A stretch of 64,000 nt of DNA from contig CACYZM010000001.1 of the NCBI GenBank assembly GCA_902778855.1, positions 5,838-69,837 of the forward strand. The letters run 5' to 3'. Under the pieces are notes generated by a model. That model did no database searches. It had not been told where the DNA came from and worked only from the letters and a program-made list of their open reading frames with translations. The first letter of the stretch is position 1. Each line of letters opens with the position of its first letter. This DNA is from an uncultured Bacteroidia bacterium (GTDB lineage Bacteria; Bacteroidota; Bacteroidia; Bacteroidales; UBA932). This document shows positions 1 to 48,545 of the stretch, piece after piece. The position numbers and the translations under genes are program-made.

Positions 1-560
1 TTTTCCTTGACGAACTGATAATCGGCCTCCTGCTTCTGTGCACGGATTTCATCCGCCTGCTTTTCCAGACGGGCGGATTCTTCGGCATCAGCCTCCCCGG
101 AGCGAAGACGGTCATAGATGGCCATGATCTGATCGCTCAGTCGTTCTTCTTGTTCGGCATTCTGCTGGACCAGGTCGTTGGCCGGAGTACCCGATACGCG
201 GGTCTTATGGTCCGCATCAGTAACTACGCTGATTTTGGCTCCGGGTTCGATGACGACCGTCGCGTGGCCGGCAAGATTGCCGCCGGTCAGGTCACCGACA
301 TAGATCGTACAGTAATCGGGGTCGGACACCTTGCCCGAGAACGTGTATTTTCCTTCCTGAACCAAGGTCGAATCCATCGGCATGGACTGCGTCGGATCCG
401 CGACCAAGTCGGAGATGTTGAAGCTGGCTACCTTATAAACTTTCGCCCCTTCCAGGGAAGGGTCTTCCACGACGCCTTCAATCGTGTAACTGTTCCCGCC
501 GCAGGCGGAAACAAGCAGGGCGGCCCCCAGGGCCGCCGCTACGAGTAAGAGATTTCTCAT
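1..560 (-). CDS. DUF4369-type lipoprotein, probable TlpA-like thiol:disulfide oxidoreductase (5' complete; 3' end runs off the window)
   Basis: Absent from the ORF track because no stop lies in the window. Reverse-strand ATG at 558-560 reads MRNLLLVAAALGAALLVSACGGNSYTIEGVVEDPSLEGAKVYKV... It has a lipobox (LVSAC) and the same N-terminal pattern as the neighbouring 575-1747 protein. Confidence 0.6.
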   Translation of the reverse strand, partial: MRNLLLVAAALGAALLVSACGGNSYTIEGVVEDPSLEGAKVYKVASFNISDLVADPTQSMPMDSTLVQEGKYTFSGKVSDPDYCTIYVGDLTGGNLAGHATVVIEPGAKISVVTDADHKTRVSGTPANDLVQQNAEQEERLSDQIMAIYDRLRSGEADAEESARLEKQADEIRAQKQEADYQFVKE

Positions 561-34647: not shown

Positions 34648-35745
34648 ATGAAAAGATTCTTTTACGCATTCGTCGTCCTGCTGCTTGCCGCCGCCTGCGG
34701 CCAGGACAAATTCGTCGTCAAAGGCACCGTCGCCGAAGGCGAGACTTTCCCCGAAAACGCCCTCGTCTGTCTGTACGACGGCGACAATCTGCTCGACAGC
34801 TGCGCCGTGGTCGACGGCGCCTTCACCCTCAAGGGCCCGGCCAATCCGGAGAAACTCTACCGTATTTCGGCCAAATACGACCGCCCGCAGCGCGACCGCT
34901 CCTGGAACTTCGGCGTGATCCCCGAAAAGGGCACTTTCCCCGTAACCTTCGCCAAGAACGCCCTCGACTGCACCATCGACTCGCAGGTCAACCGCGACTT
35001 CCTGGATTTCAACCTGAAGATGCAGGATGTCGCCAAAGAATACCGCGATCGATTCATGGCCCTCGAGGATAAGTCCGAAGAAGCCGTCGACGCCCTGATG
35101 GACGACATCAACGGCAAGATGAAGGCACTGAGCCTCGACGCCATCGGCAAGAACGCCAACAATTACATCGCCAAGAACGCCCTCCAGAACATCATCTACG
35201 ACCTGCCGCTCGACGAACTCAAGGAGATCATCGGCAAGTGCGGCAAATTCGTGGGCGAAGACGAAGGCATCTCCCGCATCGTCCGCAGCAAGGAAGCCGA
35301 ACTCGAGACCGCCGAAGGCAAGCCTTTCGTCGACTTCGCCGGCAAGACCCCCGACGGCGCCGACATCAAGCTCTCCGACTATGTGGGCAAGGGCAAATGG
35401 GTGCTTACCGATTTCTGGGCGTCCTGGTGCGGCCCGTGCATGGGCGAGATCCCCAACATCAAGAAGGTCTTTGAAACCTTCGAAGGCGACGACTTCATGG
35501 TGCTCGGCGTAGCCGTCTGGGAACGTGACGGCGACAATACCGCCAGCGCCAAAAAGATGGAGGAGAAAGAGATGAAGTGGCACCAGATTTTCGTAGGAGA
35601 CGACAAAACTCCGACCGATTCCTACGGCATCGTCGGCATTCCGACCATGATCCTCTTCGCGCCCGACGGCACAATCTACAAGCGCGGCGAAGTGCTCCGC
35701 GGCGAATCGATGTACAAGACCGTGGCCGAGGCCCTCGGTAAATAA
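34648..35745 (+). CDS. TlpA-like thiol:disulfide oxidoreductase lipoprotein (DUF4369 + thioredoxin)
   Basis: Lipobox LLAAAC and motif DFWASWCGPCMGEIP. It starts 14 nt after the atpG stop. Confidence 0.85.
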   Translation: MKRFFYAFVVLLLAAACGQDKFVVKGTVAEGETFPENALVCLYDGDNLLDSCAVVDGAFTLKGPANPEKLYRISAKYDRPQRDRSWNFGVIPEKGTFPVTFAKNALDCTIDSQVNRDFLDFNLKMQDVAKEYRDRFMALEDKSEEAVDALMDDINGKMKALSLDAIGKNANNYIAKNALQNIIYDLPLDELKEIIGKCGKFVGEDEGISRIVRSKEAELETAEGKPFVDFAGKTPDGADIKLSDYVGKGKWVLTDFWASWCGPCMGEIPNIKKVFETFEGDDFMVLGVAVWERDGDNTASAKKMEEKEMKWHQIFVGDDKTPTDSYGIVGIPTMILFAPDGTIYKRGEVLRGESMYKTVAEALGK

Positions 35746-35754
35746 CCCGCAGCC

Positions 35755-37134
35755 ATGAAACGTTTCTGGATGATGATGGCCTGCGCACTTACCCTGGCCG
35801 GCTGTACGGACTACAAGGCCTACTACAACGGCGTGCTGGAGGAGATTTCCAGTGAACGCTACAACGGCCGCAGCGTGTACCACGACGGCGACGTGCGCGC
35901 CGCCAAGTATCTCATCGACCAGCTCGCTTCGATCGAGGGCATCGTGCCCTGCGAGGCGGCCGGCCCGGAAGACGCTTCGGTTCAGCCCTATAAGAAAAGC
36001 CTCGTGGAACCGGCCGATGCGGGCCGTTGGAATGCCGTGGAAGGCAAGGAGAAATATCTCCCCTACCTCCAGCACTTCCAGTTCCCGATGAACGTGATGC
36101 GCGGCGCGATGTCGCTCTCCGTCGACGGCGTGGCCTACGCCCCGACCTTCGACTTCATCGCCAAGGAGTTCTCACCCACCTGCCACGGCTTTTTCAAGGT
36201 CACCTATCTTGACGAAGAAGCCTACCACCGCGAGGGCTTTATGGAACACCTCAGCAGCGGGATGTACAAGGACCAGTTCGTGGTCATCGACTGGAACCGT
36301 TATCTGGAGACCGTCCAGCCCGATCCCTTCGACAAGTACAAGCCCTGGCTCACGGACCTCGAAAACATCGGCGGCATCATCCTCCGGCAGGAGGAGCAGT
36401 TCCCCTACTTCAAGGCCCGCACCTGGTACCAGAGCCCGCACCCGGTCCTGTTCGTGAACGGATCGTTCCCCAACGACGCCCGTGAGATCGAACTGCACAT
36501 CGACGCCGAGATGCTGCCCACCCGCGACGCCCACAACGTCGTGGCCTGGCTGCCCGGCACCGATCCGAACTGCGACACTTACTACACCTTCATCGCCCAC
36601 TACGACCATCTGGGTTATATGGGCGCCGACCAGGTGTTCCCGGGTGCCAACGACAACGGCTCCGGCTCCGCGATGGTGGTCACGCTGGCCAAATACTTCA
36701 GCAAGAACCGGCCGCGGCACGGCATCCAGTTCATTCTGGTCGACGCCGAGGAGGAAAACCTCCTGGGCTCGTTCTTCTACTGCGAGAATCCCCGTCTGCC
36801 GCTCGACAAACTCGAATACCTGATCGACCTCGATATGGTGGCCGATGACACCGACCACCTGTCCACGCAGATCACGCCGGGCGGCGAAGCCGGCCTGGAG
36901 CAGTTCCGCGCCATCAACGCCGACGGCAAATACCCGCCCTTCGACTTCGTGATGGAAGAGATGAACGACGACAGCGACCACTTCTCCTTCGCCCAGAAAG
37001 GCGTCCCCGGCATCTACCTCGAAACCGAAGGCAACATTATCCAATACTACCACACCCCCCGCGACAACTTCCAGAACACCCGCGATAGCAACTTCGACCG
37101 CCTGTTCCACCTGATCACGGAGTTCGTGAAATAA
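35755..37134 (+). CDS. M28-family metallopeptidase (aminopeptidase-like) lipoprotein
   Basis: Lipobox LTLAGC and M28 motifs AHYDHLG, GANDNGSGSAMV, VDAEEENLLGS. Confidence 0.85.
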   Translation: MKRFWMMMACALTLAGCTDYKAYYNGVLEEISSERYNGRSVYHDGDVRAAKYLIDQLASIEGIVPCEAAGPEDASVQPYKKSLVEPADAGRWNAVEGKEKYLPYLQHFQFPMNVMRGAMSLSVDGVAYAPTFDFIAKEFSPTCHGFFKVTYLDEEAYHREGFMEHLSSGMYKDQFVVIDWNRYLETVQPDPFDKYKPWLTDLENIGGIILRQEEQFPYFKARTWYQSPHPVLFVNGSFPNDAREIELHIDAEMLPTRDAHNVVAWLPGTDPNCDTYYTFIAHYDHLGYMGADQVFPGANDNGSGSAMVVTLAKYFSKNRPRHGIQFILVDAEEENLLGSFFYCENPRLPLDKLEYLIDLDMVADDTDHLSTQITPGGEAGLEQFRAINADGKYPPFDFVMEEMNDDSDHFSFAQKGVPGIYLETEGNIIQYYHTPRDNFQNTRDSNFDRLFHLITEFVK

Positions 37135-37159
37135 CGGAGGAATAGCCCACTATTGACAA

Positions 37160-37190
37160 CCGCCCCGGAACGTTTTCGGGGCGGTTTTTA
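37160..37190 (+). terminator. rho-independent terminator ending the atp-tlpA-M28 transcription unit
   Basis: Stem CCGCCCCG (37160-37167) / CGGGGCGG (37177-37184) followed by TTTTT. Confidence 0.7.
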
Positions 37191-37201
37191 ATGATGCTCC
37201 G

Positions 37202-37342
37202 GGGGTAGGTCCCCGGTTGTTATGGGATAGGTCCAATAAAAGAATCGGGATCTACCCCGTAATATGGTATCAGATGGCGATTTACGGGGTAGGTCTCGGG
37301 GGATTCATCCGACCTACCCCAAAAGATGGCGGGACCTACCCC
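37202..37342. repeat. two-fold symmetric array of six GGGGTAGGTC / GACCTACCCC boxes (REPIN-like inverted doublet)
   Basis: Boxes start at 37202(F), 37224(F, 1 mismatch), 37249(R, 1 mismatch), 37286(F), 37311(R) and 37333(R). Start-to-start spacing is 22-25-37-25-22. The left ~70 bp aligns to the reverse complement of the right ~70 bp. Confidence 0.65.
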
Positions 37343-37357
37343 GATTATCCCCGTCGA

Positions 37358-38203
37358 TCAGGGAATGGCAGTGCCGTGGAATTCGGTGGCGTGGGTAATG
37401 GCGGCCAGGGCAGCGAGATTGTCGGGCTTGACGCCGCAGCCGGGCATCACGATGAGGCGGCTGCCGGCGCGACGGACCAGAAGGGTGATCAGGCCGCGGC
37501 CGTCCCAGGCGTTCGGGGCCTGGCCGGAAGTGAGCAGGCGGGTGCAGCCGAGGGCGATGATCTGATCGAGGGCGATGAACGGGTCGGCCGTGCAGACGTC
37601 ATAAGCGCGGTGGAAAGTCACCGGCAGCGGGCTGGCGGCGGCGATCAGTCGGCGCATGGCCGCCCGGTCGATGGCGCCTTCCGGCGTCAAGGCGCCGACA
37701 ACGATCCCGGCCACACCGACCGATTTGCAATACCCGATATCCTCGATCATCTGTTGCAGATCGACTTCATCATAGACAAAATCTGCTGCGGAGAATCCGC
37801 CATCCCCAACCGGATCGGGGGTCTGGGGTTCCCGGTCAAGCCGGGAATGACGATCGGGGCGGATCAACACGTTGACGGGAATTGTCAGAGACGCAACGAC
37901 ATCGCGGATGAGGTCGCGGGGCGGCGTCACGCCGCCGACCGAAAGATCGACGCAGAGTTCGATGCGGCCCGCGCCGCGGGACTGGGCCGACCGGGCCTGT
38001 TCGAGGGTGGTGCAGCAGGTCTCGATGAAGAGAGATGCCCGGTCAGGCCGGGCATGACGGTCGTCGGGAATCGGCGACGGGGTGCCGCCGGAGCCAGATT
38101 CCAGGTCAAGCCGGGAATGACGCTCATCGGGGGCTGCCGACGGGTTATTTTCGTCATCTTTGGGATAGCGCTGGGCGAAGCCGGGGACGAGGGAGAAGGT
38201 CAT
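37358..38203 (-). CDS. cutC: CutC-family protein (copper homeostasis protein CutC) carrying three in-frame hairpin-repeat insertions
   Basis: Core motifs IETCC...GAGRIELC...GGVTP...IPVNVLIRP...TFHRAYD...RLLTSGQ...IMPGCGV match CutC. Extra segments ERHSRLDLES, DRHARPDRAS and DRHSRLDREP are encoded by the repeats. The ATG forms an ATGA overlap with the upstream stop. Confidence 0.8.
   Translation of the reverse strand: MTFSLVPGFAQRYPKDDENNPSAAPDERHSRLDLESGSGGTPSPIPDDRHARPDRASLFIETCCTTLEQARSAQSRGAGRIELCVDLSVGGVTPPRDLIRDVVASLTIPVNVLIRPDRHSRLDREPQTPDPVGDGGFSAADFVYDEVDLQQMIEDIGYCKSVGVAGIVVGALTPEGAIDRAAMRRLIAAASPLPVTFHRAYDVCTADPFIALDQIIALGCTRLLTSGQAPNAWDGRGLITLLVRRAGSRLIVMPGCGVKPDNLAALAAITHATEFHGTAIP
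37829..37859. repeat. hairpin repeat copy 1 (TTCCCGG-TCAAG-CCGGGAA + TGACGATCGGGG) inside cutC
   Basis: A perfect 7-bp stem with a 5-nt loop, plus a conserved 3' tail. It is translated on the minus strand as PDRHSRLDRE, between the conserved LIRP and DFVY segments. Confidence 0.7.
38035..38068. repeat. hairpin repeat copy 2 (ATGCCCGG-TCAGG-CCGGGCAT + GACGGTCGTCGGG) inside the cutC 5' region
   Basis: 8-bp stem with the same architecture and tail as copy 1. Translated as DDRHARPDRAS. Confidence 0.65.
38098..38133. repeat. hairpin repeat copy 3 (ATTCCAGG-TCAAG-CCGGGAAT + GACGCTCATCGGGGG) inside the cutC 5' region
   Basis: Same element with one stem mismatch. Translated as DERHSRLDLES, in the same frame as the other two copies. 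Confidence 0.65.
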
Positions 38204-40563
38204 AGCTGGGGGATGACGCGTTTGAGGTCTTCGGCCAGGGAGGTGTTGTAGCCTTGGGAGAAGTAGACGATGCGGCCGAAGCTGTCGCAGATCGTGACGA
38301 CCGGCAGTTGGCGGGATTCGCTTTTACAGCCGGCGCAGAGCATCTCCAGGATCGAGCCGTCTGGGTCATCGATCGGGATGAGTTTCGACAGGCGACCCAA
38401 AGATGCGTCGGTCGAAGAGGCCATCGACCGGCCGACGGCGGGCCCGGCCATCAGCAGCGGCCTGCCCCATTCTTCCAGTTGGGGAATGATGGAACCCAGT
38501 TGGCGGACGCAGTGGTTGGTCGGCTCGTCGCGGTCGCCCAGGACGGCCAGCAGATAATAGCCGCGGCCGGTCTGGGGCAGGAAGCGGTCGGCATCCATCG
38601 TGCCCAGCACCGTGATCTTGTCGTCGGCGACGCGCATCACCAGCGGCACTTCCGTGTCGGCATCGGCCGCTACCGGGAAGAATTCCGCGTGCGAGAGCAC
38701 GCTGCCGTCGGCCAGACGGGTTCCGGAGGTCAGCATATAGTAGCCGGTATCGACCTTCAGCGGGAAGACCTGCTTCCAGGAGTTATGGTCGGAATCTTCG
38801 TCGATGGTCAGCAATTTCGCCGTTCCGTCTTCCACCTTGGCCAAAGTGAAATGATGGTAGTACTCCGGATCGCCGCGGCCGTCGAGCGCCACGGAGACGG
38901 TGCCCTGCGCCCGGGGCGCCAGCTGCGCGCCGCCGGTCAGGGCGTCGAGCTCCGCCTCGAGGCCCATGGCCCGGCAGAGCGCGACATAGAAGATGTCGCG
39001 GTTGTGGGCATCGGCTTTCCGGCTGGTCCACACGTCAATGGGGGCCATCCGGAGTTCCTGGGGATTGCGTTCCGTGTCGAGTTCGATATGCTTTTCCACC
39101 CAGTCGGCCACTTCCTCGCGGGAAGTGAGCGACAGGCCGGCGCCCAGCTCGGCGAAATAAGGTTTGAGCGGCTCGAGCTCGACCCGCGGGCAATCGCGCA
39201 GCGGATTGAACGCGCCGTCGATGTGGGCGTAGGCGTCTTCCAGCACGTCGGCGGTCACGTCACCCATATCTTTGGCCGAGAGCGAACGCAGCAGGGCGTG
39301 GGCATTGGCGTCGTCGTGCGCCGCCAGGAAAGCGTCGATCACCGCATGGTTCCCTTTCGGACGGGTCTCGCGGATGATGTCTTCCTGTTTGAAGCGCTCC
39401 GCATTGCGGGCCACTTCCTCGGGAGACGCGCCGGACGGAAGCGGATTCTCGGCGGGCGGCACGATATCCAGGTCGAGCGAGAAGCGCTCGCCGACCTGAT
39501 GATCGAGCGTCACGGACACTGCTTCGCCGTCGATCACGGCCAGGCCGAAGCGGTCGCCCTTCGAGGCCCAGGCCACCATATCGCCGCAGCCCATATCGAG
39601 GGCCGCCTGGCCCTTGCGGTCGGTCTGATAGGTAGCCACCGTATAGTATTCACCGTAGTTATAGATCTTGAACTCCACCCGGGCGTCGGCCACCGGCTTG
39701 CCGGCCGCATCCACGACCGTCACGACGCTCCGCCGCGCCGGCACGTAACCCCGGATGACGTTGATTTCCGTATAGCAGGGCGTCCGTTCGATGACATCCT
39801 CGTCGCCGTGATAGTCGCCGAAAACCTTCGTATGGAGGATCAGCGCCCGCGACACCGGCGCCGTAAACCAGGCCATGTTGAGCCGGGGCTCCGGCTCACA
39901 GGCTCCCATAAACTGCCACTTGCCGTCGACGAAGACCTCCACCCAGGCGTGGTTGTCGTCGGTGTGGGCCCAGCGCGGCGTATAGACCTGCCGGGCGGGA
40001 ATGCCCGCGGCGCGCAGCGCGGCCACGGCCAGCGTGGACTCCTCGCCGCAGCGCCCTACGCCGCGCTGAATCGTCTGCAGCGGCGACGACGTACGGCCGT
40101 CGGAAGGCTGGTAAGTAGCCATTTCGTGACACCAGTGGTTGATCTCCAGGGCCGCCTGCTCCAGCGTCATGCCCGCCACGCGGGCGCAGAGCGAATCGGC
40201 ATACAGCGTCCGAAAATCGTCGAGCGGTTCATTGTTCACCCGCAGCGGCAGCACGAAGTGCCGGAACTCCCGTTCGGGAACGTCCCAGCCCATCCGCTCG
40301 CGCACTTCGAGCGTCTTTTCGACATTGGCCTGCCAGTAGGCCAACGGCTGCGCCGCAAAATCAGGATGCGGCATATTGGCATACAGGAAATTCACATAGG
40401 CGTCCGCATCGCTCCGCGGCTCGCTGCCGCAGGCTGTCAGTATCAACGCCAGCAATAAAGCCTGCAATGTAAGCTTCAGAAAATGAGGCAGAAACGCAAG
40501 TTGATCCCCTCTCCCGGAGCGGGGATCATTTTTAATAAACGATTGATTATCAGATGTGTACAT
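38200..40563 (-). CDS. transglutaminase-like (Cys-protease / PNGase superfamily) lipoprotein with additional C-terminal domains
   Basis: Core GVGRCGEESTLAVAALRAAGIPARQVY...DNHAWVEVFVDGKWQF and lipobox LILTAC. The start is uncertain: the ATG at 40563 lies inside a repeat element, and 45 aa precede the lipobox Cys. Confidence 0.75.
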   Translation of the reverse strand: MYTSDNQSFIKNDPRSGRGDQLAFLPHFLKLTLQALLLALILTACGSEPRSDADAYVNFLYANMPHPDFAAQPLAYWQANVEKTLEVRERMGWDVPEREFRHFVLPLRVNNEPLDDFRTLYADSLCARVAGMTLEQAALEINHWCHEMATYQPSDGRTSSPLQTIQRGVGRCGEESTLAVAALRAAGIPARQVYTPRWAHTDDNHAWVEVFVDGKWQFMGACEPEPRLNMAWFTAPVSRALILHTKVFGDYHGDEDVIERTPCYTEINVIRGYVPARRSVVTVVDAAGKPVADARVEFKIYNYGEYYTVATYQTDRKGQAALDMGCGDMVAWASKGDRFGLAVIDGEAVSVTLDHQVGERFSLDLDIVPPAENPLPSGASPEEVARNAERFKQEDIIRETRPKGNHAVIDAFLAAHDDANAHALLRSLSAKDMGDVTADVLEDAYAHIDGAFNPLRDCPRVELEPLKPYFAELGAGLSLTSREEVADWVEKHIELDTERNPQELRMAPIDVWTSRKADAHNRDIFYVALCRAMGLEAELDALTGGAQLAPRAQGTVSVALDGRGDPEYYHHFTLAKVEDGTAKLLTIDEDSDHNSWKQVFPLKVDTGYYMLTSGTRLADGSVLSHAEFFPVAADADTEVPLVMRVADDKITVLGTMDADRFLPQTGRGYYLLAVLGDRDEPTNHCVRQLGSIIPQLEEWGRPLLMAGPAVGRSMASSTDASLGRLSKLIPIDDPDGSILEMLCAGCKSESRQLPVVTICDSFGRIVYFSQGYNTSLAEDLKRVIPQL

Positions 40564-40575
40564 TGCAGCGAAAAA
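40457..40575. repeat. ~120-bp imperfect palindromic element (family 'CTGCAATGTA', copy 2)
   Basis: Left end AAAGCCTGCAATGTA (40458-40471), right end TGTACATTGCAGCGAAAAA (40557-40575), central hairpin GATCCCC/GGGGATC (40503-40527). It shares the 15-mer TGTGTACATTGCAGC with 16918-16932. Confidence 0.5.
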
Positions 40576-43512
40576 TTATAAGACTGTGACTTCGTCGACA
40601 AACAGATGGGCTTCGCCGCCGGCGCCCTGGTGCCAGTCGGGCAGGACGCCGAAATTCTTGGCCACCACCCGCACGTAGCGGGCGTCGGCGCGGAGGTCGA
40701 GGGGGAACTCGAAGATCTGGACCTTCGGGTCCTTCGGATCGACTGCGTGCTTCATCTGGCCCTGCTTCACGAATTTCTTGCCGTCGGTCGACGTGTAGTA
40801 TTCCACCCACTGCGGCATCAGGATCCAGGCGCGGCTGTCCTGCAGGAAGCCGGCCGCGATGCGGGTGATGCGCCGAATCTTGCCCAGGTCGATCGTCGCG
40901 TCGAAATCGCAGCCCTGATAGCCCTGCCAGCCGCCCAGGCGGAAGTTGGTATTGCCGCGCACACCGTCGACGATGGCATTGTCGCCGCCGGCGTTGTAGG
41001 TCGGCTCATATTTATTGGCCAGTTTGACCTTGAAAGTATTGTCAAATTTCCGGAGCGTGGTGGTCGTGATGAAGCTGTGGGTGGCGCCGGTTTCGTCGGT
41101 GCAGTAGGCCTCGATGGTCGAGGTACGGCTGATTGTGAACGGGCGCTGGTAGCGGATCCAGTCGGGCTGGGCGCCGCCCTTCTCGGACAGCACGCGGTAC
41201 CAGATGCGGTAGCGCTTGTCAGCCGCCCCGAGGGCGACAGTCGTCGAGCCGGAGAAGGTCTGCGACGGCACGTCGAACCAGGGGTTCTCGACGATGGTGT
41301 GCGGCACGGCGGCCACGGGCCGGTCGTCCGGCTTGCTGCCGAAGCGCGGGTTGGGCTTGCCGTCCATACCCAGGATGAAGGTATGGCCCTGTTCGATGTC
41401 GGAGAAGCGGAGGTACGACTTGCTGTACGGCACGCCGTCGCGCATCACGTGGTTGATGTAGGGATTCTTCTGGCTGGTGCGCGGAGCGCGGACGGTGAAG
41501 TCCTTGCCGTTCTCGAGGTGGATCACGGCGTTGCGGAACAGCGGCGTGCCGAAGACCAGCACGTCGGAACCGGGCGTCACGGGATAGAAGCCGAGGGCGC
41601 TCATCACGTACCAGGCCGACATCTGCCCGCAGTCCTCGTTGCCGCAGAGGCCGTCGGGCCGGGAAGTGAAGAGGTCGTCCATAATGCCGCGCAGCACGCG
41701 TTGCGCCTTCCAGGGAGCGCCAGCATAGGCGTAGAGATAGGCGATGTGGTGGCTGGGCTCATTGCCCTGGGCGTACTGCCCCACCATACCCGTCATATCG
41801 GCCACCTTCCAGGCGCCGCCGGTGTCGCTCGACGAGGTGAACAGTTCATCGAGCCAGTCGATCATCGAGTCGTCGCCACCGCTGACGCCGATCAGGCCGT
41901 TCACATCGTGCTGCACGTGGAAGGAGTACTGCCAGGAGTTGGCCTCGGTGTAGTGGACGTTGACGTCGGTGGGATTGAAGGGCGAGAGCCAGATGCCGTT
42001 GATGCGCGGGCGCATGAAGCCCGTGGTGGGATCGTAGACATTGCGCCAGTACTGGGCGCGTTTCTGGTACTGCGCTTCGGTCTGGCGGTCGCCGGCGAAA
42101 TGGGCCACCTGGGAGATGCACCAGTCGTCGAGGGCGTATTCCAGGGTCTTCGACACGGATTCGTGCTCGCGCTCGGCGAGCACCAGGCCGTTGTCGCGGT
42201 ACACGTCGATGCCGAATTCGGCCCGGTTCGAGGTGGCCACCAGCGCCTTGAGGGCCTTCTTCACGTCGAAGTCGTCGATGCCCTTGGCCAGGGCGTCGGC
42301 GATCATCGGGGCGGAGCTGTAGCCGATCATGCAGTTGGTCTCATAGCCGCAGAGCTCCCAGACGGGGAGCTTGCCGCCTTCGTCGTAGATCGAGATCATC
42401 GACTTGATGAAGTCGACGGTCCGCTTCCGCTCGATGATGTTGAACAGCGGATGCAGGGTCCGGTAGGTGTCCCAGAGGGAGAAGATGTGATAGCGGTCGA
42501 ATCCCACAGCCTTGTGGACGCGCCGGTCCATACCCAGGTACATCCCGTCGCTGTCGGAGTAGAGGCTCGGCGCGATGGCCGCGTGGTAGAGCGCCGTGTA
42601 GAAGACCTTCATTGCTTCGGCGTCGCCCTCCACCTCGATTTTCGAGAGGAAATCGTTCCAGGCGACGCGGGTGGACTGGCGCAGCAGGTCGAACGAGAAC
42701 AGGCCGTTCTGTTTCCAGCCGTCCTCCGATTTGAGGTTGGCCTTGGCGCCTTCTTCGGAGACCGAAGAGATGGCGGCCTTGACCACCAGCTCGCGGGCGC
42801 GCGACTGGCCGGCCGAACGGTCGAAGCTCAGCAGGGCCGTGGCGCCGTGCGGCGACTGGGCGATGGTGATGCCCGTGATCGGGCGGGAGAATTCCATATA
42901 AAAGTAGCACATCTGGCCGTCCGCCCAGGAGCGGGACGACCGGAAGCCCTGGATGGCGTTTTCACCGGCCAGTTCGATCTTGGAATCCAGCACGCGGTCG
43001 CGCGGGCCCAGGTCGACGACCAGCTGCGGGGTCGCATCCTTGGGATAGGTATAGCGATGGGCGCCGATACGGCGGCCGACCGTCAGCTCCGCCTCCACGT
43101 CCCAGCGGTCGAGATGCACGCTGTAGTAGCCGGCCGAGGCGTGCTCGTTGCGGTGCGAGAAGGGCGACTGGTAGTTCTCTTCCTTCACCAGGCCTTCGTA
43201 GCCCACCACCGGCATGATGCGGATGTCGCACAGGTCGGCGCAGCCGGTGCCGCTCAGGTGGGTGTGCGAGAAACCCTTGATCAGGGAGTCGCTGTAATGG
43301 TAACCCGAGCAGCCGTCCCAATTGTCCTCGCGGGTATCGGGACTGAGCTGGATCATACCGAAGGGATAGGTCGCGCCGGGGAACGTATGCCCGTGGAAGT
43401 CGGTTCCCACCATCGGATTGACCATATCGGCATATTTTGTGCGGAGTACGCCCGCGTCGAGCAGGCCGGGGATGCCCGCCAGCAAGACAAAGAGGATCAG
43501 AAGCTTTTTCAT
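40576..43512 (-). CDS. GH92-family alpha-mannosidase with C-terminal F5/8 type C (discoidin) domain
   Basis: MVNPMVGTDFHGHTFPGATYPFGMIQLSPDT is a GH92 hallmark, and a discoidin-like domain lies in the last ~140 aa. The ATG at 43512 (MKKLLILFVLLAG) is preferred; an alternative ATG is at 43530. Confidence 0.9.
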   Translation of the reverse strand: MKKLLILFVLLAGIPGLLDAGVLRTKYADMVNPMVGTDFHGHTFPGATYPFGMIQLSPDTREDNWDGCSGYHYSDSLIKGFSHTHLSGTGCADLCDIRIMPVVGYEGLVKEENYQSPFSHRNEHASAGYYSVHLDRWDVEAELTVGRRIGAHRYTYPKDATPQLVVDLGPRDRVLDSKIELAGENAIQGFRSSRSWADGQMCYFYMEFSRPITGITIAQSPHGATALLSFDRSAGQSRARELVVKAAISSVSEEGAKANLKSEDGWKQNGLFSFDLLRQSTRVAWNDFLSKIEVEGDAEAMKVFYTALYHAAIAPSLYSDSDGMYLGMDRRVHKAVGFDRYHIFSLWDTYRTLHPLFNIIERKRTVDFIKSMISIYDEGGKLPVWELCGYETNCMIGYSSAPMIADALAKGIDDFDVKKALKALVATSNRAEFGIDVYRDNGLVLAEREHESVSKTLEYALDDWCISQVAHFAGDRQTEAQYQKRAQYWRNVYDPTTGFMRPRINGIWLSPFNPTDVNVHYTEANSWQYSFHVQHDVNGLIGVSGGDDSMIDWLDELFTSSSDTGGAWKVADMTGMVGQYAQGNEPSHHIAYLYAYAGAPWKAQRVLRGIMDDLFTSRPDGLCGNEDCGQMSAWYVMSALGFYPVTPGSDVLVFGTPLFRNAVIHLENGKDFTVRAPRTSQKNPYINHVMRDGVPYSKSYLRFSDIEQGHTFILGMDGKPNPRFGSKPDDRPVAAVPHTIVENPWFDVPSQTFSGSTTVALGAADKRYRIWYRVLSEKGGAQPDWIRYQRPFTISRTSTIEAYCTDETGATHSFITTTTLRKFDNTFKVKLANKYEPTYNAGGDNAIVDGVRGNTNFRLGGWQGYQGCDFDATIDLGKIRRITRIAAGFLQDSRAWILMPQWVEYYTSTDGKKFVKQGQMKHAVDPKDPKVQIFEFPLDLRADARYVRVVAKNFGVLPDWHQGAGGEAHLFVDEVTVL

Positions 43513-47457: not shown

Positions 47458-47485
47458 GGTCAATGGGTCGCGTTGACCGAACGGG

Positions 47486-48421
47486 CTACCGGGAAGGCTT
47501 GAGACGGAGATATTTCTCCAACTGACGACGGCTGGCTCCGGTGCGGAGGCCCAGGGGCTCCAGCAGCTCGCGGCGCTCGGCTTCCGACATACGGATAAGG
47601 TCGTCGGTGCTTTGAATCCGATGGGATTGCAGCAGGAACATCGTCATCTGGCTATAGATGAGGTCGGATCGGCCGACGAATTCTTCCCGAATCGCATATT
47701 CGCTTCCCGTTGTGGTGTTGATGGCCGTCACCAGATCGGCATAATTTCCGAAACGGTAGAACAAGTCCTGATAGTCAACGCAGTTGTAGATGCTGATGAT
47801 CAAATCATAAAGCTGCTTTCTCTCCTGCGGGGTCAATGGAGCGGTTATCCGTTTAAGTTTCGCATAGTTGAGCGGAAGTTCCTCCTTCCGGGAACTCTTG
47901 ACTTCTTCGACGGCCCGGCGCATCGGCGCCCGGGCCTTGTCGAGCCTGACCGGCGATGAAAAAGGGAAACGGCTGTCGGCATACGCCAGGATATTCCAGG
48001 GATACTGTTCTGCCCGCTTGCAGATGAGACGCTCGACGGGATTGTTGTAGAGATAGGCAATGGCGCTGCGCTGCTTTTTGTCGTCGACTTTCGACGCCAC
48101 GCCGTATTTCGCTGTAAAGAGGGGTCCGCGCAAGCCATACCATTTGTTGTAAGTGTTCGCAAACCAACTGGTATAGAGACTTACGAACTGATCCATTTCC
48201 TCTTTGCTCCTGACCTCGACCAGGACGTGAATATGGTCGACCATCAGGCAGATGCCGAGAATCCGGATGTTGTAACGCCGGGCGGCCGTGGCAATGAACG
48301 TAAAGAAGACCACGCAGTCCCGCACTGAGTAAAAAATCAGGAAACCATTTACGGTTTTTTGACAGATGTGCTGAATGGCACCGTCGGAAAAAAACAATCG
48401 TCCCTTCATACCTCGCTGCAT
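47486..48421 (-). CDS. HUH/Y1 single-strand DNA transposase family protein (IS200/RAYT-like) with C-terminal extension
   Basis: HUH motif LMVDHIHVLVEV and Tyr motif AIAYLYNNPVERL. The start is ATG 48421 or 48409, just downstream of a TATCTTTG box; the track ORF extends to 48517. Confidence 0.75.
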   Translation of the reverse strand: MQRGMKGRLFFSDGAIQHICQKTVNGFLIFYSVRDCVVFFTFIATAARRYNIRILGICLMVDHIHVLVEVRSKEEMDQFVSLYTSWFANTYNKWYGLRGPLFTAKYGVASKVDDKKQRSAIAYLYNNPVERLICKRAEQYPWNILAYADSRFPFSSPVRLDKARAPMRRAVEEVKSSRKEELPLNYAKLKRITAPLTPQERKQLYDLIISIYNCVDYQDLFYRFGNYADLVTAINTTTGSEYAIREEFVGRSDLIYSQMTMFLLQSHRIQSTDDLIRMSEAERRELLEPLGLRTGASRRQLEKYLRLKPSR

Positions 48422-48432
48422 TTGGTTACGTA

Positions 48433-48440
48433 CAAAGATA
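48433..48440 (-). promoter_or_regulatory. Bacteroidota -7 promoter box (TATCTTTG) for the Y1 transposase gene
   Basis: The minus strand reads TATCTTTG, 11 nt upstream of ATG 48421 and 23 nt upstream of ATG 48409. Confidence 0.45.
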
Positions 48441-48545
48441 CGATCGGGAACCGCCGTTTTCCAAATTCTTTTTGTATGCCGACGATATCCGCGCAACATT
48501 TTCCCGCGATTCTGCATCTATAGAACAGATTGCTCCCGTTGACCT

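Follow-up and report, generated by a model that had tools for sequence, protein, structure and literature searches.

CGTC-tagged palindromic repeat units in frame at two sites of a cutC gene from an uncultured Bacteroidales bacterium

Rickettsia palindromic elements (RPEs), which Ogata and colleagues in 2000 and Claverie and Ogata in 2003 are said to have described, are reportedly translated palindromic repeats that interrupt functional genes without shifting the frame, at positions that are permissive or exposed on the protein surface; the classic form, RPE-1, is said to measure about 100-150 nt and to be confined to Rickettsia. The dRS3 repeat of Neisseria is mainly intergenic and is an integration target. 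The present analysis concerns three hairpin units of about 28 nt within the gene cutC of an uncultured Bacteroidia bacterium (Bacteroidales; UBA932), located in a stretch of 64,000 nucleotides (assembly GCA_902778855.1, contig CACYZM010000001.1, positions 5,838 to 69,837 of the forward strand) that is referred to below as the window. An earlier sequence-only reading of this DNA had proposed that palindromic elements were inserted in frame in cutC and that they behave like RPEs.

The closest described system is the superfamily of CGTC-tagged repetitive extragenic palindromes (REPs) defined by Di Nocera, De Gregorio & Rocco 2013, BMC Genomics 14:522 (PMC3733652). A CGTC REP has an unpaired CGTC head (with the variants TGTC and CCTC) and a stem of 8-9 bp, whose first two positions are complementary A and T; its loop measures 4-5 nt, and its unpaired tail has 3 nt with the consensus CCA (PMC3733652). 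Such repeats occur as many dispersed copies with unrelated flanks, among which head-to-head dimers, often heterodimers, predominate and tail-to-tail dimers are rare; their usual place is just downstream of open reading frames (ORFs), a role as RNA elements is ascribed to them, intragenic units have already been described, and there is no dedicated flanking transposase (PMC3733652). The listed hosts are Proteobacteria, Chlorobi, Bacteroidetes (Gramella forsetii is in the strain list), Spirochaetes and Thermotogae, and superfamily members include dRS3, which is Neisseria CGTC-1, and the Rickettsia conorii families CGTC-1 and CGTC-4, which are RPE-6 and RPE-4, respectively; the supplement gives REP-encoded peptides similar to those reported below, and cutC is absent from the target-gene list (PMC3733652). 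In REPIN/RAYT systems (Bertels & Rainey 2011; Nunvar 2010; Quentin 2018, PMC6006769), the tag is GTAG and cognate units flank the gene of a REP-associated tyrosine transposase (RAYT), an arrangement known as a REPtron.

Hairpin units and the integrity of cutC

The pattern CCNGGTCARGCCGGGNATGACG has exact matches at 37831, 38038 and 38101 (+ strand coordinates) and one further match, with 3 mismatches, in the 64 kb, where 0.03 matches are expected by chance and 0 of 100 shuffles reach 4. All three exact matches lie on the coding (minus) strand of cutC (Table 1), and each belongs to a unit that consists of an unpaired CGTC head, an 8-bp stem starting AT, a 5-nt loop (CTTGA, CCTGA and CTTGA on the coding strand of units 1, 2 and 3) and a short tail. 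The units share one reading frame, giving DRHSRLDRE, DRHARPDRA and ERHSRLDLE with the common pattern RH(S/A)R(L/P)D, and the proposal of three in-frame palindromic hairpins in cutC is borne out by the exact matches and this common frame. One frame per orientation contains TGA (TCA TTC CCG GCT TGA) and the other two are open, in agreement with the closed frame that had been pointed out earlier. A longer tail, GACG.TC.TCGGGG, had also been assigned to the element; only GACG, the CGTC tag, belongs to it, given that the flanks of the 125 copies listed from other genomes are unrelated. A GTCAT-anchored hairpin scan of the 64-kb window found no copies besides the three in cutC.

By architecture, the window units are CGTC-tagged REPs. 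All 3 start with CGTC on the coding strand, their stems follow AT(T/G)CCCGG / CCGGG(A/C)AT over 8 bp with 0-1 mismatch, their loops are 5 nt long (CTTGA or CCTGA), and no dedicated transposase accompanies either them or the copies listed from other genomes. The identity of the element is established by these features; the nearest family is provisionally CGTC-2, an assignment made by stem and loop length (8 bp, 5 nt) alone. Further points of likeness to the CGTC REPs, taken with the copies in other genomes, are the TGTC head of many Fibrobacter copies, the dispersal of the copies, the presence of head-to-head heterodimers, and intragenic units that encode VIPGL.., ..VKPG(H/M)(D/T) and RH... in hosts including uvrA and other repair genes. 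The units differ in their hosts, which here are ruminant-gut Bacteroidales and Fibrobacter, in their tail, which is CT(C) or CC rather than CCA, and in their target, as cutC is new.

Comparison with the remaining systems places the units as follows. They resemble RPEs in being palindromic and in frame in a functional ORF whose host gene is intact, according to the Pfam, PDB, start-codon, substitution-rate and AlphaFold evidence, but unlike RPE-1 they are 28 nt long and reside in Bacteroidales. Since RPE-4 and RPE-6 have been placed in the CGTC superfamily (PMC3733652) and the window units fit its architecture, the link to RPEs is closer than analogy and the RPE-like behaviour proposed earlier is upheld in an intact gene; the tie to RPE-4 and RPE-6 is one of classification in that paper and not of sequence comparison. 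They share with Neisseria dRS3 an ATTCCC...GGGAAT stem, a CGTC head, short length, abundance and frequent clustering, whereas the dRS3 loop is 4 nt by the CGTC-1 definition and the window loop is 5 nt. As in REPIN/RAYT systems, short hairpin units often form inverted pairs, and the window holds a single-copy, vertically inherited Y1 (HUH) gene, but the tag is CGTC instead of GTAG and the Y1 gene is not flanked by units. MITEs (miniature transposable elements of the inverted-repeat type) possess terminal inverted repeats and a target-site duplication; the window unit is itself a hairpin.

The three units are not equally well preserved. Unit 2 folds as RNA at -16.4 kcal/mol (z -3.1), and the fold of unit 3 is no better than that of shuffled sequence, which indicates decay. 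At unit 1, the bases CGGGGCGG of the longer tail proposed earlier are the Arg-Pro codons of the CutC core. A segment on the opposite strand next to unit 1 matches about 20 of 28 bases of a unit in the related locus L202 (by eye), and the 78-nt insert region folds into a single extended hairpin in which unit 1 is paired with this segment, with a z-score of only -1.2. The internal insert is therefore described as probably two units, with unit 1 and a degenerate partner forming a putative tail-to-tail dimer that would cover most of the 23 inserted residues; of the earlier description of a single internal unit, unit 1 itself stands and its solitary state probably does not. Units 2 and 3 lie in two adjacent, similar 63-nt segments, of which the related locus L201 holds one, and may share a local tandem duplication of 63 nt. 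Units 2 and 3 are 180 nt away from unit 1, with conserved core sequence in between.

The 281-aa protein matches Pfam CutC (PF03932) with an E-value of 3.9e-56 in two stretches, and alignments to CutC proteins in the PDB end at residue 116 and restart at residue 140, where E. coli and human CutC have 2 residues. The claim that an internal copy breaks the CutC core and adds about 20 residues is confirmed by this gap, the insert being 23 residues long, and unit 1 comes right after the strand ...PVNVLIRP. Units 2 and 3 are carried by the N-terminal extension, with unit 2 abutting the first CutC strand, LFIETCC; this matches the earlier account of two copies in an extension of about 50 aa that starts at an ATGA, the extension having 57 residues and its ATG being at 38203. 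The 4-nt overlap of the cutC start with the stop of the upstream gene is also found in the related loci L202, L205, L207, L209, L210 and L211. AlphaFold, with an alignment of 34 relatives as input, predicts the barrel confidently (predicted local distance difference test score, pLDDT, of 85-98 in the core) and gives pLDDT below 50 at residues 1-50 and 122-134, i.e. both insert regions are predicted to be disordered.

Against four orthologues, the ratio of non-synonymous to synonymous substitution rates (dN/dS) is 0.05-0.22 in core part 1, 0.12-0.23 in core part 2 and 0-0.31 in the first 16 codons, and, as judged from these ratios, cutC is under purifying selection on both sides of the internal insert. 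From codon 1 to the first barrel strand LFIETCC there is no in-frame ATG, GTG or TTG, and because no canonical start codon lies between them, a complete CutC must include units 2 and 3. Neither stop codons nor frameshifts were found in more than 100 relatives despite many indels, the reading frame stays open across many gains and losses of units, and codon changes in the N-terminal 15 residues are mostly synonymous. Proteins of exactly 281 aa form 28 clusters of 94-99% identity from separate assemblies, which rules out an assembly artefact. The integrity of the gene is established on these grounds.

Table 1. Positions of the cutC units, their host gene and related features (window coordinates unless a locus or residue is named)
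Feature	Location	Strand	Description
cutC ORF	37358..38203	-	281 aa, 846 bp; ORF list, Pfam, PDB, dN/dS, AlphaFold
CutC layout	residues 1-57; 58-116; 117-139; 140-281		N-terminal extension; core part 1; insert; core part 2
ATGA overlap	38200..38203	-	cutC start with stop of upstream transglutaminase-like gene (38200-40563)
CGTC-REP unit 1	37825..37852	-	CGTC ATTCCCGG cttga CCGGGAAC ccc; 1 stem mismatch; read (D)RHSRLDRE(P)
CGTC-REP unit 2	38032..38059	-	CGTC ATGCCCGG cctga CCGGGCAT ctc; perfect stem; read (D)RHARPDRAS
CGTC-REP unit 3	38095..38122	-	CGTC ATTCCCGG cttga CCTGGAAT ctg; 1 stem mismatch; read (E)RHSRLDLES
Probable degenerate second unit	37798..37825	+ (opposite to unit 1)	CGCC ATCCCCAA ccgga TCGGGGGT ctg
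Two adjacent 63-nt segments	38018..38143	-	71% identical; each one unit plus codons PS..P(D/E)(D/E); repeat search
CutC insert junction peptides (predicted examples)			...NNPSAAPDERHSRLDLESGSGGTPSPIPDDRHARPDRASLFIETCC... and ...NVLIRPDRHSRLDREPQTPDPVGDGGFSAADFVYDE...
155-nt element	L210:2249-2403; L211:2251-2405; L207:10310-10465; L122:1718-1849		
Y1 (HUH) transposase-like gene	47486-48517	-	343-aa ORF; motifs DHIH, YLYNNP; C-terminal tail of about 170 residues

Empty and alternative states of the two sites in relatives

A protein search returned 2668 relatives, and the best 120 of these, with lengths of 212-338 residues and the shortest few partial or on very short contigs, were examined; 34 of the best 120 were aligned. 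The relatives, which the earlier reading had expected in Alistipes/Rikenellaceae, are labelled only as 'Bacteroidales bacterium' metagenome-assembled genomes (MAGs) from ruminants, and the cutC DNA of close relatives was taken via exact-protein look-ups. A metagenome scan for cutC relatives with the pattern VTFHRA[FY]D proved too general, as nearly all matches were distant CutC and only loci L121-L123 were close.

The first 15 residues and the barrel are conserved in the 34-sequence alignment, and two places are hypervariable, namely the linker that joins the N-terminal peptide to LIETCC and the loop that follows PVNVLIRP. The linker contains 0-4 (D)RH(S/A)R(L/P)D units; it is without units in proteins P0070, P0073, P0083, P0100 and others, and P0033 and P0046 carry an extra 8-residue half-unit, PDRHARLD. 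Depending on the relative, the loop is short or contains a window-type insert, SPVKPGMT...VMPGPDRAS or longer material, and the internal site is empty in L204 (IRP-ISKL-DFVY) and L205 (IRP-SAP-DFVY), with 9-12 nt at the loop. The sequence-only reading had named an ancestral loop as the finding that would overturn it; the orthologue alignment settles the matter, since empty sites exist in L204, L205, P0070, P0073, P0083 and P0100, and so the inserts are derived.

At the DNA level, the window loop reads CGTCATTCCCGGCTTGACCGGGAAC and then the possible degenerate second unit, and the L202 loop reads AGATCCCCGGTCAAGCCGGGGATGACG aatgg CGTCATGCCCGGCCCCGACCGGGCATCT, which is two units head to head, the first of them on the other strand and read SPVKPGMT. 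Head-to-head heterodimers occupy the internal site in L202, L209 and L208, with 5, 51 and about 140 nt between the heads, respectively, as is usual among CGTC REPs, whereas the window's own pair looks tail-to-tail. The L202 units have more stem mismatches than window units 1 and 3, and a 6-nt loop variant, CCCCGA, is present in relatives. Both empty and alternative states of the two sites are established by direct comparison of these loci.

The clade-specific N-terminal peptide MSFSLVPGFAQRYPK (window 38159-38203, minus strand) is invariant or nearly so in 34 of 34 aligned relatives, with or without units. Its codons CTC GTC CCC GGC TTC (38178-38190) resemble half a hairpin unit (85% in a repeat search), a likeness that may be due to chance or to a very old unit.

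A second, larger palindrome uses the same loop. A long-palindrome element of 155 nt is present there in L207, L122/L123, L210 and L211, and is not found in the window. It has 12-nt terminal inverted repeats (TTCAACGCGTGA/TCACGCGTTGAA), an RNA fold of -94.7 kcal/mol (z -5.7), and is in frame in both orientations, and it is like RPE-1 in size and behaviour. An Rfam search of the relatives' loci gave no match at the inserts, including the 155-nt element, its sole match being a tRNA in L211. The copies of L210 and L211 are inverted relative to each other yet share 99.4% identity, with flanks that are 92.6% identical, and either in-place inversion or repeated site-specific insertion is possible. 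The loop holds CGTC units either way round, head-to-head dimers that grow in the middle and the inverted 155-nt element. It is conceivable, although unlikely, that palindromic DNA lands or flips by preference in this loop after PVN(V/I)LIRP and is not merely tolerated there. If in-place inversion or re-insertion did occur, cutC would contain an intragenic invertible segment, open both ways, that yields alternative protein isoforms.

Downstream of cutC, the spacer between it and the gene of an M28 peptidase (37202-37342) holds a separate cluster of six GGGGTAGGTC motifs, on both strands, with two inverted arms of 61 nt. In the window this motif has 12 matches at no more than 1 mismatch, and 3.1 would be expected. 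L202 and L209 have the cluster too, in expanded form with further repeats of the 22-nt unit GGACCTACCCCAGAACCATCGA, and it is absent in L211, whose spacer has a tRNA. An explanation of the region in the window as a tRNA or integration site was rejected, as there is no tRNA in 35000-41000.

The repeat in other genomes and the search for a mobilising enzyme

When one genome per species was scanned for the 22-nt core of the unit, at least 120 loci with at least 125 copies were listed, a sample whose proportions are not quantitative. By a hand count of record titles, about 73 of the 120 loci listed belong to Bacteroidota, chiefly 'Bacteroidales bacterium' MAGs from the ruminant gut as well as Candidatus Cryptobacteroides, 22 to Fibrobacter, and about 25 to further phyla, among them Proteobacteria, candidate phyla, Omnitrophota, Planctomycetota and Dehalococcoidia; several MAGs contribute 3-5 contigs each. 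The borders of the 125 copies listed are sharp, (A/G)GAT...ATGAC(G/A), with flanks that are unrelated beyond ATGAC(G/A), and this end corresponds to a CGTC or TGTC head. Dispersal of the repeat in these genomes is established by these copies. The tail is CT(C/G) or CC, with 2-3 conserved nt, in Bacteroidales and Fibrobacter and CCA in the Proteobacteria copies of the core. In Fibrobacter copies (within L001-L120) the head is mostly TGTC (ATGACa) and the flank GGAGAT, and in Bacteroidales copies the head is mostly CGTC; such lineage-specific subfamilies speak against contaminated bins as the origin of the matches across phyla.

Behind many of the listed copies stand half-units or another kind of hairpin, GTCATGGCCGGCTCCGATCGGCCATC. 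Half-units (GTCAAGCCGGGAATGAC and a spacer of 6-10 nt) often trail full units, singly or in series, as in L002, L009, L010, L046, L088 and L089, an arrangement that suggests growth by slippage.

Stop-free stretches of at least 150 codons enclose 76 of the 125 listed copies, and four frames are in use, two per orientation (IPGQAGND, FPVKPGMT, VIPGLTGN and RHSRLDRE), the third frame each way having TGA. When 17 spanning ORFs were checked against Pfam, 14 proved to be real genes with domain matches flanking or across the unit, one (PP-loop, TilS-like) had a domain match on one side only, and two had no match. The host genes encode MutS2, GH3, GH31, UvrA (several units), HrpB (Fibrobacter), FtsK and an MtaB-like protein, as well as SpoIID, an FGGY kinase, an outer-membrane efflux protein (OEP), a PD40 protein, DnaX, MnmA and a ferredoxin-domain (Fer4) protein. 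On this ORF and domain evidence, in-frame residence is a general habit of the repeat in ruminant-gut Bacteroidales and Fibrobacter. In one UvrA gene (L072:1-4596) there are two sites with several units in all. A reindeer-rumen Bacteroidales MAG has a different repeat, of about 28 residues (GPATPERTEGRKPLLVPRGFTDLRQKPR), in 4-5 copies at L028:3051-3560, in the N-terminal part of an ABC-F-like ORF, where it lies upstream of an ABC ATPase and shares its frame.

When the 2243 ORFs of the 120 listed loci were clustered all against all, neither a transposase nor a recombinase was found to recur, and ABC-F/ABC ATPases made up the largest cluster shared among loci. This agrees with the published lack of a dedicated transposase for CGTC REPs (PMC3733652). 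A candidate in the window is the Y1 (HUH) transposase-like gene, which adjoins rplI about 9 kb from the cutC units and is syntenic in L202 and L203. In Pfam its product matches Y1_Tnp (4e-8); in NCBIfam it is matched best by the model for REP-associated tyrosine transposases, at 42.4 bits, below the cut-off of 80, and it has no sequence match in the PDB. A hairpin with a 7-bp stem, CGGTCAA...TTGACCG, lies just past its stop codon (47458-47480). As a mobiliser of the cutC units the gene was rejected: it is without flanking units, its NCBIfam score is below the cut-off, and in L209 a GT2 glycosyltransferase gene takes its place where cutC keeps its units. No homologue was found by tblastn in 850 kb around the 125 listed copies. 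This RAYT-like gene may still be regarded as a candidate lead for the enzyme that copies CGTC REPs.

Origin of the cutC units and its meaning

The units in cutC are very probably dispersed CGTC-tagged REPs that have settled in two permissive sites, keep the frame, are translated as disordered segments and slowly decay. They would be non-autonomous palindromic repeats, frequent in Bacteroidales and Fibrobacter of the ruminant gut, that arrive by transposition-like copying and do not arise in place, landing where an extra peptide is harmless, namely the clade-specific N-terminal linker and the loop after PVNVLIRP, with part of their number due to local duplication. With two of three frames open in each orientation and a hydrophilic peptide rich in Pro, Gly, Asp and Arg, insertions and indels that keep the frame could survive purifying selection; selection would remove units that break the frame or the fold, and the survivors would be translated as neutral peptide and slowly decay. 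The intragenic copies are decaying, as seen from the stem mismatches in units 1 and 3, the greater number in L202, and the fold of unit 3.

Several observations weigh against this account. All 3 window copies lie in one 846-bp gene with none in the other 63 kb, and the 20-kb flanks of cutC in relatives are without units outside cutC; the census in this organism covers the 64-kb window only. Such clustering points either to a hotspot or to local duplication outweighing new insertion: new units may tend to arise beside existing ones, as they do where REPs form dimers and clusters, or duplication may be the main source. The units have no linked transposase, and no target-site duplication is definable from the available empty orthologous sites, which are too diverged. 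That the inserted peptide is made is inferred from the lack of an alternative start and the conservation of the frame.

An alternative that complements rather than replaces insertion is that the multiple copies in cutC are mainly local products, of tandem duplication of the 63-nt segment, hairpin-promoted slippage that makes half-units, or gene conversion, and perhaps descend from one founding unit; this has a real though somewhat less than even chance of being correct. It draws on the identity of the two segments with units 2 and 3, which extends to the flanking codons, on the single segment of L201, on the half-unit PDRHARLD of P0033 and P0046 and the half-units behind full units in many other genomes, and on the extra material between the dimer heads in L208 and L209. 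However, unit 1 is set apart from the other two by conserved core, the stems differ among units (ATT against ATG), and local duplication cannot yield the opposite unit orientations seen at the internal site in close relatives. Judging by the repeat structure, local processes clearly contribute to the cutC copies. It is more doubtful by far, and unlikely, that the hairpins are kept for a function, either as RNA structure (ribosome pausing, protection of the upstream transcript or a processing site) or as peptide modules that tune CutC. The usual position of REPs just 3' of ORFs and their supposed action as RNA elements (PMC3733652) would fit such a role, as would the location of units 2 and 3 at 80-170 nt past the stop codon of the upstream gene, the strong hairpin of unit 2, and the fixation of the three-unit state in 28 near-identical clusters. 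Against it stand the stem mismatches in units 1 and 3, the poor fold of unit 3, the variation in copy number, orientation and presence among close relatives with a conserved core, and the predicted disorder of the insert regions.

Two further explanations concern the gene itself. In favour of cutC being a pseudogene broken at the loop, or a mis-annotated gene whose start lies downstream with units 2 and 3 intergenic, typical CutC proteins begin near residue 58 of this ORF, and most distant relatives match from residues 57-60; the conserved RGG of 'IRPRGGDF' in E. coli is also missing here. This explanation, which the sequence-only reading had itself raised as an objection, is largely refuted and hardly credible, in view of dN/dS values of 0.05-0.23, the open frames of more than 100 relatives despite indels, the lack of an alternative start before LFIETCC, the conserved first 15 residues with mostly synonymous codon changes, and the likewise missing RGG where the internal site of relatives is empty. 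The least probable explanation, that this CutC clade inherited the repeated peptide from its ancestor as a low-complexity motif and that the palindrome in the DNA is incidental, has in its favour that the motif is confined to the same two CutC regions; it is refuted by identical 22-nt DNA in unrelated genes, intergenic DNA and other phyla and in all four open frames, by the empty orthologous sites, and by the L202 internal site, where this DNA lies on the opposite strand and encodes SPVKPGMT.

Insertion of dispersed CGTC REPs into permissive sites of cutC would be no new mechanism, as CGTC REPs inside genes are already known; the hosts and the target gene are what is new. The finding extends CGTC REPs and their intragenic habit to abundant ruminant-gut Bacteroidales and Fibrobacter, and the span of the 22-nt core across Bacteroidota, Fibrobacterota, Proteobacteria and candidate phyla raises the question of what copies them. 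For annotation, the occurrence in these genomes of peptides such as RHSRLDRES, VIPGLTGN, IPGQAGND and PVKPGMT marks a segment as derived from the repeat and not as a domain, and the hairpins may break or confuse short-read assemblies. The case of cutC shows a short selfish hairpin repeat lengthening a conserved enzyme without breaking it, in population-level detail afforded by many metagenome assemblies, with the same two sites empty, filled, duplicated, flipped and expanded among close relatives.

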